Shown here piece after piece: positions 7,229-47,221 of a stretch of DNA of 64,000 nt (positions are counted from its first letter, which is position 1; each line of letters starts with the position of its first letter). Origin of the DNA: Escherichia coli (GTDB lineage: Bacteria; Pseudomonadota; Gammaproteobacteria; Enterobacterales; Enterobacteriaceae); assembly GCF_003018115.1 (NCBI RefSeq), contig NZ_CP027457.1; one strand, given 5' to 3'. A program made the position numbers and the translations under genes. The notes under the pieces are model-generated. The model did not search any database and was not told the origin of the DNA. It saw only the letters and a program-made list of their open reading frames with translations.

Positions 7229-7308
7229 GCCTGATGCGCTACGCTTATCATGCCTACAAAGATGCACGATCGAGTAGGCGGGATAAGGCGTTTACGCCGC
7301 ATCCGGCA
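7229..7308. repeat. REP/BIME pair (two inverted REP units)
   Basis: gcctgatgcgctacgcttatcatgcctac ... gtaggcgggataaggcgtttacgccgcatccggc; canonical REP consensus. Confidence 0.8.
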
Positions 7309-30071: not shown

Positions 30072-30350
<279 letters not shown>

Positions 30351-44708: not shown

Positions 44709-44922
44709 AAAATCACAGGGCAGGGAAACCTGCCCTTGTTTCAGCGCGCTTTTAGAGCACGCATTTTTTCATACTCTAAATAATTCGAGTTGCAGGAAGG
44801 CGACAAGAGAGTGAATCCCCAGGAGCTTACATAAGTAAGTGACTGGGGTGAGCGAACGCAGACGCAGCACATGCAACTTGAAGTATGACGAGTATAAGGC
44901 CCGACGATACAGGACAAGAGAC

Positions 44923-46002
44923 ATGTCTAAGATTTTTGATTTCGTAAAACCTGGCGTAATCACTGGTGATGACGTACAGAAAGTTTTCCAGGTAGCAAAA
45001 GAAAACAACTTCGCACTGCCAGCAGTAAACTGCGTCGGTACTGACTCCATCAACGCCGTACTGGAAACCGCTGCTAAAGTTAAAGCGCCGGTTATCGTTC
45101 AGTTCTCCAACGGTGGTGCTTCCTTTATCGCTGGTAAAGGCGTGAAATCTGACGTTCCGCAGGGTGCTGCTATCCTGGGCGCGATCTCTGGTGCGCATCA
45201 CGTTCACCAGATGGCTGAACATTATGGTGTTCCGGTTATCCTGCACACTGACCACTGCGCGAAGAAACTGCTGCCGTGGATCGACGGTCTGCTGGACGCG
45301 GGTGAAAAACACTTCGCTGCTACCGGCAAGCCGCTGTTCTCTTCTCACATGATCGACCTGTCTGAAGAATCTCTGCAAGAGAACATCGAAATCTGCTCTA
45401 AATACCTGGAGCGCATGTCCAAAATCGGCATGACTCTGGAAATCGAACTGGGTTGCACCGGTGGTGAAGAAGACGGCGTGGACAACAGCCACATGGACGC
45501 TTCTGCACTGTACACCCAGCCGGAAGACGTTGATTACGCATACACCGAGCTGAGCAAAATCAGCCCGCGTTTCACCATCGCAGCGTCCTTCGGTAACGTA
45601 CACGGTGTTTACAAGCCGGGTAACGTTGTTCTGACTCCGACCATCCTGCGTGATTCTCAGGAATATGTTTCTAAGAAACACAACCTGCCGCACAACAGCC
45701 TGAACTTCGTATTCCACGGTGGTTCCGGTTCTACTGCTCAGGAAATCAAAGACTCCGTAAGCTACGGCGTAGTGAAAATGAACATCGATACCGATACCCA
45801 ATGGGCAACCTGGGAAGGCGTTCTGAACTACTACAAAGCGAACGAAGCTTATCTGCAGGGTCAGCTGGGTAACCCGAAAGGCGAAGATCAGCCGAACAAG
45901 AAATACTACGATCCGCGCGTATGGCTGCGTGCCGGTCAGACTTCGATGATCGCTCGTCTGGAAAAAGCATTCCAGGAACTGAACGCGATCGACGTTCTGT
46001 AA
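44923..46002 (+). CDS. fbaA: Class II fructose-bisphosphate aldolase
   Basis: ORF 44839..46002; start set at MSKIFDFVKPGV (359 aa). Confidence 0.98.
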   Translation: MSKIFDFVKPGVITGDDVQKVFQVAKENNFALPAVNCVGTDSINAVLETAAKVKAPVIVQFSNGGASFIAGKGVKSDVPQGAAILGAISGAHHVHQMAEHYGVPVILHTDHCAKKLLPWIDGLLDAGEKHFAATGKPLFSSHMIDLSEESLQENIEICSKYLERMSKIGMTLEIELGCTGGEEDGVDNSHMDASALYTQPEDVDYAYTELSKISPRFTIAASFGNVHGVYKPGNVVLTPTILRDSQEYVSKKHNLPHNSLNFVFHGGSGSTAQEIKDSVSYGVVKMNIDTDTQWATWEGVLNYYKANEAYLQGQLGNPKGEDQPNKKYYDPRVWLRAGQTSMIARLEKAFQELNAIDVL

Positions 46003-46024
46003 GTCATTCCTTTCTGCTTATCTC

Positions 46025-46049
46025 AAGGCCCGCTCTGCGGGTCTTTTTT
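46025..46049 (+). terminator. fbaA intrinsic terminator
   Basis: cccgc-tct-gcggg hairpin followed by T8. Confidence 0.8.
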
Positions 46050-46056
46050 TTGCCAA

Positions 46057-46154
46057 AAGAAAAATTGCCTGATGCGCTACGCTTATCAGGCCTACACGTA
46101 TCCTGCAATATATTGAATTAGCAGGTTTTTGTAGGCCGGATAAGGCGTTCACGC
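46057..46154. repeat. REP/BIME pair between fbaA and mscS
   Basis: gcctgatgcgctacgcttatcaggcctac ... gtaggccggataaggcgttcacgccgcatccggc. Confidence 0.85.
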
Positions 46155-46194
46155 CGCATCCGGCATGACAAAGCGCACATTGATATCTGTCTGA

Positions 46195-46218
46195 GCCCCG
46201 CTCTGCGGGTCTTTTTTT
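46195..46218 (+). terminator. Second copy of the fbaA terminator hairpin
   Basis: ccccgctctgcgggtcttttttt, near-identical to 46025-46049, on the far side of the BIME. Confidence 0.6.
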
Positions 46219-46360
46219 CGCCAAAAGCAAGGTGATACAGATGAGAAATCTGTGATCTATTTGGCAAAATTATGCTTTATTGTTTACCCTTGTCAGACTG
46301 CCCGTCATAAGGCGGCGGAGTGTATTTCTCCATTTTGAGTCAGTTGAAAAGGAATATTGA

Positions 46361-47221
<861 letters not shown>

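Follow-up and report, generated by a model that had tools for sequence, protein, structure and literature searches.

For four decades it has been asked how REP sequences and BIMEs colonize enterobacterial genomes, and the favoured agent is the REP-associated transposase RAYT. BIME-1, also termed RIP or RIB (Gilson, Bachellier and Hofnung; Oppenheim 1993; Boccard & Prentki 1993), is, as far as the summaries in PMC3333891 and PMC1187871 describe it, an extragenic unit of approximately 140 bp found at the 3′ end of a transcription unit, with a Y and a Z1 REP in inverted orientation and a linker, L, that has a site for IHF. The element between fbaA and mscS of Escherichia coli considered here is alike in these respects. 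It differs from the family in being without the left outer motif and in lying between two 37-nt copies of host terminator sequence.

The REPIN/RAYT system, explained by a single-strand ‘peel and paste’ mechanism (PMC3116915, PMC2817692, PMC3333891), has two inverted REPs with a spacer and GTAG/CTAC tags. The same is seen here, where Y ends with CTAC and Z1 starts with GTAG, but the repeated unit reaches approximately 25–30 nt beyond each REP. Enzymes of the IS200/IS605 type, the family of RAYT, generate no flanking target repeats (PMC3333891, PMC2817692), whereas at fbaA a 37-nt repeat flanks the element and is present in single copy at the empty site. Since IS200/IS605 transposition leaves no target repeats, hairpin-sized duplications are a poor fit to the prevailing RAYT model. 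In E. coli tnpA-REP is located at yafL-fhiA (PMC3333891), outside the DNA analysed here.

A second comparison is with MITEs, which carry terminal inverted repeats and target-site duplications; Correia, ERIC and RUP are examples (PMC3184786). They are small and non-coding, with direct target repeats and a one-copy empty site, as is the case at fbaA, and the outer ends of a canonical BIME-1 are likewise mutually inverted. The fbaA copy does not have terminal inverted repeats as the right end alone is retained, and the duplications, short and of fixed length (2–10 bp) in MITEs, are 37 nt here and 19–25 nt at other BIME-1 loci, tracking the size of the target hairpin. A review concludes that REPs show no MITE signatures (PMC3184786). 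A duplication of these lengths matches no known transposase, and comparison of the outer ends with the terminal repeats of three families, IS30, IS5 and IS1, gave no significant similarity.

Tandem intrinsic terminators are known as fail-safe pairs, rrnB T1-T2 for example. The fbaA spacer resembles that arrangement in having two hairpin and U-tract signals in series after a highly expressed operon. The second signal, however, is a copy of the first and apparently a by-product of insertion, is dispensable, being absent in approximately 31% of genomes, and is decaying in some lineages.

Anatomy of the fbaA–mscS spacer

The window, that is the whole 64-kb stretch of DNA that was analysed, matches E. 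coli chromosomes with identity up to 100%. Its + strand carries pgk, fbaA, mscS and argO. The start of fbaA is placed at an internal ATG (MSKIFDF...) of the open reading frame, following the 1080-nt annotated fbaA in matching E. coli records. Features of the locus are listed in Table 1.

Table 1. Features of the fbaA–mscS region, in window coordinates, and the basis for each assignment
Feature	Position	Strand	Basis
fbaA CDS, class II fructose-bisphosphate aldolase	44923..46002	+	stop TAA 46000-46002; ORF 44839-46002
Terminator 1: 9-bp stem-loop AAGGCCCGC-TCT-GCGGGTCTT (46025-46045) into T8 (46044-46051)	46025..46051	+	terminator scan, RNA fold
Direct repeat copy 1, 37 nt: hairpin, T tract, GCCAAAAGAAA	46026..46062	+	repeat search, 22-mer count
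AATT, sole remnant of the BIME-1 left outer motif (canonical TGAGAYTGMTGACAAACGCAAAACT, 25 nt)	46063..46066	+	alignment with 4 other BIME-1 loci and 20 metagenome-sampled loci
Y-type REP (palindromic unit), CTAC at end	46067..46095	+	invariant alignment block; inverted-repeat arm
BIME-1 L linker, conserved core TGCAATATATTGAATT	46096..46130	+	consensus match; alignment; Rfam ES036
Z1-type REP, GTAG at start	46131..46164	+	exact Z-pattern match; inverted repeat; partial naRNA4 Rfam match below threshold
BIME-1 right outer motif ATGACAAAGCGCACATTGATATCTGTCTG, diverged ATGAACAAAGCGCACTTTGTCAACAATCTG	46165..46193	+	alignment with other BIME-1 copies
Direct repeat copy 2, 37 nt, with terminator 2: core stem CCCGC-TCT-GCGGG 46197-46209, T7 46212-46218	46194..46230	+	repeat search, terminator scan, 22-mer count
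mscS CDS	46361..47221	+	ORF list; annotations of matching records

A repeat search reveals one strong direct repeat, AGGCCCGCTCTGCGGGTCTTTTTTTTGCCAAAAGAAA in copy 1 and AGCCCCGCTCTGCGGGTCTTTTTTTCGCCAAAAGCAA in copy 2, with 34 of 37 positions identical (92%) and 168 nt from start to start. One 22-mer of the repeat, CCCGCTCTGCGGGTCTTTTTTT, has just two occurrences in the window (46029 and 46197), where 0.00 would be expected (no match in 100 shuffles). In K-12, copy 1 is the empty-site sequence through ...CGCCAAAAGCAA. The earlier note on this DNA had reported a hairpin with its T tract at 46026 and again at 46196, bracketing a two-REP BIME between fbaA and mscS. That description is borne out, the coordinates of the hairpins being off by 1–3 nt and the BIME proving to be two inverted REPs with an L linker. 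A possible leftward extension of the repeat (TATCTC against TATCTGTCTG) was discarded: the similarity is weak and gapped, and the right outer motifs of other BIME-1 copies end in ...AATCTG, which assigns these bases to the element.

Both copies are picked up by the terminator scan as hairpin and T-tract sites, and both present a GC-rich stem-loop followed by a U tract on the same strand, downstream of a gene, as expected of an intrinsic terminator. Copy 1 folds as RNA into a 9-bp stem (−14.1 kcal/mol, z −3.5) leading into U8; the stem of copy 2 has an internal mismatch (−9.9 kcal/mol) and leads into U7. The copy 1 hairpin with at least seven T is invariant in six taxa (the window, K-12, E. albertii, E. 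whittamii, Escherichia sp. E1V33 and MOD1-EC7003). Copy 2 varies from one species to the next, and in E. whittamii its hairpin is destroyed. Because copy 1, the promoter-proximal one, is conserved across taxa and has the more stable hairpin, we predict that it is most likely the working fbaA terminator. Copy 2 would then be a decaying, weakly constrained back-up placed in front of the mscS promoter region. The proposal of two consecutive terminators, also made in the earlier note, holds structurally, on the scan and the folds, with termination itself a prediction.

The two copies are each self-complementary and can therefore pair with one another. In the predicted fold of a read-through transcript (46003-46235) hairpin 1 contributes its 5′ half and hairpin 2 its 3′ half to a helix that encloses the whole BIME (−84.2 kcal/mol, z −4.7). 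Further downstream, at 46253-46295 and upstream of mscS, is a block, TGTGATCTATTTGGCAAAAT...TTGTTTACCC, near-identical in Klebsiella, Enterobacter and Escherichia while the rest of the spacer is not conserved. The block is likely to be the promoter of mscS or the site of a regulator. TTTGGCAAAA is in addition the inverted partner of TTTTGCCAAA in repeat copy 1. We note that the K-12 reference (NC_000913.3, 3069808-3070164), in the copy consulted, lists no repeat feature in the fbaA–mscS spacer, though the BIME and both terminator copies are present.

The 131 nt between the repeats comprise AATT, the Y REP, the L linker, the Z1 REP and the 29-nt right motif. One Y and one Z1 REP are placed in opposite orientation, the latter with an exact Z pattern. 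The long L linker is conserved, its core CTGCAATATATTGAATTAGCA showing one mismatch to the consensus and aligning with all sampled BIME-1 copies, and the REPs and L core are invariant in an alignment with BIME-1 copies of four other E. coli loci. The window has a single unit, not a tandem array, although tandem units occur at the same locus in some genomes. On these sequence features we assign the element to BIME-1 (RIP/RIB type). The L linker of BIME-1 frequently carries an IHF site (PMC3333891); the one here is putative, with the sequence motif present and binding taken from the literature as a property of the family.

In a canonical BIME-1 the outer motifs, extending approximately 25 nt to the left of Y and 30 nt to the right of Z1, are mutually inverted repeats (TCAGAYTGMTGACAAA / TTTGTYAACAATCTGA). 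The fbaA copy has kept the right motif, which is canonical at this locus in E. whittamii, and its left motif is reduced to the last 4 nt.

Searches of Rfam returned only repeat-derived matches, ES036 above and naRNA4 below threshold, and so added no identity beyond that of a BIME. The ES036 (CssrF sRNA) match, at 46088-46130 on the minus strand with 40 bits against a gathering score of 37.6, is just the Y-REP/L-linker part of BIME-1. This ‘sRNA family’ looks like a repeat-derived model that would match every BIME-1. Elsewhere in the window Z-type REP matches with two mismatches each occur at 7278-7307 (+) and 30083-30112 (−). There is no L-linker match near either of them and they are therefore not BIME-1.

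Hairpin repeats at other BIME-1 loci and the fbaA left junction

Is the bracketing hairpin peculiar to fbaA? In strains without the fbaA BIME the best BIME matches are at mog-satP, rsmS-mscK and other loci. Four other BIME-1 loci were fetched, and two of them (mog-satP and rsmS-mscK) are flanked by 19-nt direct repeats of a locus-specific hairpin. A larger sample was taken from metagenome contigs using an exact L and Z1 pattern, giving 120 hits at 23 distinct loci, 20 of which could be analysed. The left flank of each was scored against its own right flank, with 380 cross-locus pairs as controls (mean 13.4, 99th percentile 22, maximum 25). Five of the 20 loci score above the 99th percentile, namely fbaA (51), metE-ysgA (30), cluster 14 (30), ymdF-rutG (28) and cluster 8 (25). 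Three further loci with weaker scores, 16–20, have the same geometry, and at approximately 12 loci there is no flanking repeat.

The geometry is consistent. In all eight loci the flanking copies are direct, and a foldback (inverted) duplication of the hairpin was rejected since the direct match beats the reverse complement at every one. The right hairpin copy starts approximately 30 nt after Z1, past the right outer motif, at fbaA as elsewhere, and, with the exception of fbaA, every repeat-flanked locus has its left copy immediately in front of the left outer motif. Repeats at the other loci are 19–25 nt, according to hairpin size, and comprise the hairpin only; the first copy has no T tract, having lost it to the element, and the element at these loci is therefore predicted to be co-transcribed. 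At fbaA, in contrast, the element sits behind a complete terminator. Stable hairpins (−8 kcal/mol or better) abut the left end of the element in 14 of 20 loci and the right end in 14 of 20, compared to 11 of 40 controls, an enrichment with p = 2e-4 and 9e-3.

Empty alleles are informative at two of these loci, metE-ysgA and ymdF-rutG, where they contain exactly one hairpin. The ymdF-rutG site is occupied in 1733 genomes, and in the others it is shorter by 174 bp. At metE-ysgA the occupied allele is absent from all 5426 complete E. coli genomes; it was found in an Escherichia metagenome contig of approximately 93% identity (L150), as a BIME-1 with the metE terminator hairpin duplicated, and may be a lineage-specific gain. 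If so, metE-ysgA would be well suited to establishing in which direction the duplication went. As a rule BIME-1 elements border on a hairpin particular to the locus, and in this sample of sequences the hairpin is repeated at both ends in a third or more of BIME-1 loci, and the arrangement is not peculiar to fbaA. The idea that the fbaA duplication came with insertion gains from this comparison, with the same hairpin-BIME-hairpin order at three to seven other BIME-1 loci and a single-hairpin empty allele at two.

One other metagenome contig (L215, ~1784) has a BIME-1 with the left flank of entD-fepA and the right flank of rsmS-mscK. Either recombination of two BIME-1 copies has rearranged the DNA, or the contig is a chimera assembled across the repeat.

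The right junction at fbaA is canonical. The left repeat continues beyond its hairpin for 18 nt, taking in the T tract and CGCCAAAAGCAA, and 25 nt, the length of the canonical left motif, separate hairpin 1 from the Y REP. The 3′ part of these 25 nt, GCCAAAAGCAAAATT, matches canonical GACAAACGCAAAACT at 12 of 15 positions. Given that likeness, part of the ‘target’ repeat may be element sequence or a later gene-conversion product. The junction could also represent a 5′-truncated insertion at a microhomology (GCAA, imperfectly extended). A reading based on the RAYT cleavage site was rejected, as the candidate, TGCC followed by TGAT, is 7 nt inside the element and the empty site shows that AATTGCC does not belong to the target.

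Gene conversion is the alternative that survives best. A canonical insertion would have duplicated the hairpin, approximately 20 nt, in front of a full left motif, and a short conversion tract would then have overwritten the first 21 nt of that motif, with the T tract and CGCCAAAAGCAA downstream of copy 2 as donor and the repeat lengthened to 37 nt. Such a history accounts for the 25-nt distance and for the residual likeness at 12 of 15 positions, and the allele series described below indicates that the two copies clearly exchange sequence. It requires an extra event, however, no Escherichia allele has a canonical left motif at the fbaA locus, and the likeness could be the junctional microhomology of a truncated insertion. 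We regard a canonical insertion followed by conversion as unlikely, but as deserving more weight than the other alternatives considered below.

Alleles and age of the locus in Escherichia

The full allele, terminator-BIME-terminator, is present in 3719 of 5426 complete E. coli genomes. Nearly all of the remainder are exactly 168 bp shorter (a 353-bp match as opposed to 521 bp, 74% of the query), and the empty allele, with one terminator and no BIME, accounts for approximately 31% of the complete genomes. In a second search the best BIME match was at another locus in 1745 records. Approximately 20 of the 5426 fbaA–mscS loci were read base by base. The empty alleles among them (L001, L003, L013, L040 and L243–L245) have one hairpin each and no L motif. 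The short allele reads ...CTCAAGGCCCGCTCTGCGGGTCTTTTTTTCGCCAAAAGCAAGGTG..., in which copy 1 supplies the left part and copy 2 the right part. The alignment with BIME-less strains that the earlier note had proposed as a check gives a single terminator copy and a spacer shorter by the repeat plus the BIME. The observation that would have spoken against the insertion reading, two hairpins with no REP between them, was not encountered in the approximately 20 loci read.

The locus is also found doubled. A junction specific to the tandem arrangement has a match in seven E. coli genomes, two of them confirmed by sequence. The doubled units, of 167 nt, are 100% identical in SW070917, 98% in AH04 and 99% in Escherichia sp. 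E1V33, whereas BIME-1 has been described as occurring in single copies (PMC3333891). The allele states are thus 0, 1 and 2 BIME units, with terminators always one more than the BIMEs, and the only intergenic lengths among the loci read are 190/191, 357–361 and approximately 525 nt. Slippage or unequal sister exchange between short direct repeats, RecA-independent events included (PMC5426353, PMC2884548), removes one repeat precisely, together with the DNA in between, and yields a tandem duplication as the reciprocal product. The 37-nt repeats, spaced 168 nt apart, suggest this ordinary mechanism of repeat exchange, acting here on a repeat generated by an element. The perfect identity of the tandem units in SW070917 implies that the repeats are actively recombining now.

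Over 3161 nt of flank the empty TW10690 has 23 and 27 differences to the full alleles of FCI56 and the window, respectively, compared to 57 and 44 to the empty MS15052 and Z135-5. Since TW10690 is nearer to full-allele strains than to other empty strains, the empty alleles are polyphyletic. Both flanks of the empty L001 are identical to the window, and those of the empty E69 are 4.3% diverged from E. coli. The empty and doubled alleles of E. coli are most likely later unequal exchanges between the repeats, and presence or absence within the species is more likely a matter of later deletion between repeats than of recent insertion. A 1997 study by Bachellier et al. (Genetics 145:551) reportedly described ‘excision of a whole BIME-1’ after PCR at three BIME-1 loci. 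That report is cited in PMC1187871 for BIME-1 being cleanly present or absent among isolates and, to the extent that the citing paper permits comparison, the whole-or-absent polymorphism among E. coli isolates is the same.

When did the element arrive? A search with a degenerate pattern for the C-terminal end of fbaA yielded 112 loci, E. fergusonii and Salmonella not being among them. In more than 40 loci from other Enterobacterales (Enterobacter, Klebsiella, Raoultella, Citrobacter, Pseudescherichia and others) a single terminator and no BIME follow fbaA, as the insertion reading of the earlier note predicts. The allele is occupied in E. albertii, E. whittamii and Escherichia sp. MOD1-EC7003, doubled in Escherichia sp. 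E1V33, and empty in two divergent ‘E. coli’ genomes, E69 and SCPM-O-B-8794. All occupied alleles share the same atypical left junction, GCCA[A/G]AAG[C/A]AA joined to AATTGCC, which argues for a single origin. The flanks of E1V33 and E. albertii are 6–7% diverged from E. coli, and the E. albertii and K-12 BIMEs differ at approximately 6 of 131 nt, a similar divergence. The most economical reading, with polarity assigned by parsimony from these sequences, is that the insertion and its duplication are ancient and go back to the early history of the genus Escherichia. An ancestral polymorphism redistributed by recombination would agree with these data as well.

In E. whittamii and E1V33 the spacers beside the L core (GTGATCTC...CATGCTT) differ from those of E. 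coli (ACGTATCC...CAGGTTT) far more than the flanks do, which suggests gene conversion from other BIME-1 copies. The right outer motif in these two is nearer to the family consensus.

Might the empty site instead be ancestral in E. coli, the occupied allele being a recent gain spread by homologous recombination, into other Escherichia also? The empty allele has the length of the Klebsiella and Enterobacter spacers, E. coli recombines often, and flanking haplotypes are common to empty and full alleles, L001 and the window providing an instance. Recent gain is nevertheless difficult to reconcile with the odd left junction that four other Escherichia species, their flanks 6–7% diverged, have in common with it, with a BIME that has diverged between E. 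albertii and K-12 about as much as its surroundings, or with the identical tandem units of SW070917, which are a sign of repeats that recombine at present. We judge it distinctly improbable.

Still less credit attaches to the view that tandem slippage duplicated the terminator first and that a BIME-1 later landed between the copies, the repeats being unrelated to insertion. Both fbaA copies are complete terminators with T tracts, unlike the hairpin-only repeats elsewhere, and REP/BIME elements do accumulate in 3′ intergenic regions (PMC3333891, PMC12306157). Yet no hairpin-hairpin allele without a BIME occurs among the loci read, where the three spacer lengths are the only ones. The right junction falls exactly where other BIME-1 copies meet a repeated hairpin, 30 nt after Z1, and the hairpin-BIME-hairpin order at four strong and three weaker other loci would demand repeated coincidences. 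Finally, that independent GC hairpins with T tracts came to look alike by convergence or chance can be dismissed: the shape is generic among intrinsic terminators, but the identity includes the loop and 12 nt beyond the T tract, the shuffled sequences gave no match to the 22-mer, and the indel is exactly one repeat plus the BIME.

A proposed history and its implications

Our preferred account is that a BIME-1 inserted immediately downstream of the fbaA intrinsic terminator in an ancestor of the genus Escherichia. Insertion would have duplicated 37 nt of target, consisting of the hairpin, the T tract and 12 further bases, to create the order terminator-BIME-terminator. The 37-nt repeats would then have served as substrates for unequal exchange or replication slippage, with contraction giving an empty site and one terminator, and expansion giving terminator-BIME-terminator-BIME-terminator. 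Taken as a whole, with duplication a trait of the family, this history is in our view probable. The anatomy, the allele series, the phylogenetic distribution and the parallel loci are observed in the sequences, whereas we infer the order of events, in which insertion precedes the deletions, the identity of the terminating copy and the biochemistry. The target-site duplication on insertion that the earlier note had suggested is supported in so far as duplication accompanied insertion, but a hairpin-sized repeat of 37 nt is not a classical transposase target-site duplication.

With respect to mechanism, the simplest formal explanation, offered with low confidence, is that the two strands of an extruded stem-loop are cut in a staggered fashion, each at a different foot, and the gaps then filled in. 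Alternatively, a polar copy-in process could have stopped at a microhomology. A broader and more tentative proposal, which we consider possible but rather doubtful, is that BIME-1 elements are MITE-like units of approximately 170 nt with inverted outer ends that, guided by structure, integrate at the feet of stem-loops, mostly intrinsic terminators, and duplicate the whole hairpin. The duplications of 19–37 nt would be incompatible with RAYT peel-and-paste, and the repeats would then drive clean loss and tandem gain of BIME-1 across E. coli. Were this proposal true, the fbaA copy, canonical on the right and truncated on the left with microhomology, would record a polar copy-in event.

The accessible literature, with the key BIME papers of the 1990s outside it, contained no description of the flanking terminator or hairpin duplication, of its generality or of the 0/1/2 series. 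Hairpin duplication may therefore be a new feature of an element of known kind, and one informative on mechanism. The footprint consists of a hairpin on both sides, a clean one-copy empty site and a series of 0, 1 and 2 units. It provides testable points on how BIME-1 spreads: the target, a stem-loop; the appearance of the junction; and loci polymorphic enough to catch events. For annotation, the clean presence or absence of a BIME-1 need not signify recent transposition and can be the repeat-mediated loss of an ancient insertion. For the organism, strains differ in having one, two or three predicted terminators, together with a putative IHF-binding element, between the highly expressed epd-pgk-fbaA operon and mscS, and this constitutes a natural allele series for studies of read-through and insulation.
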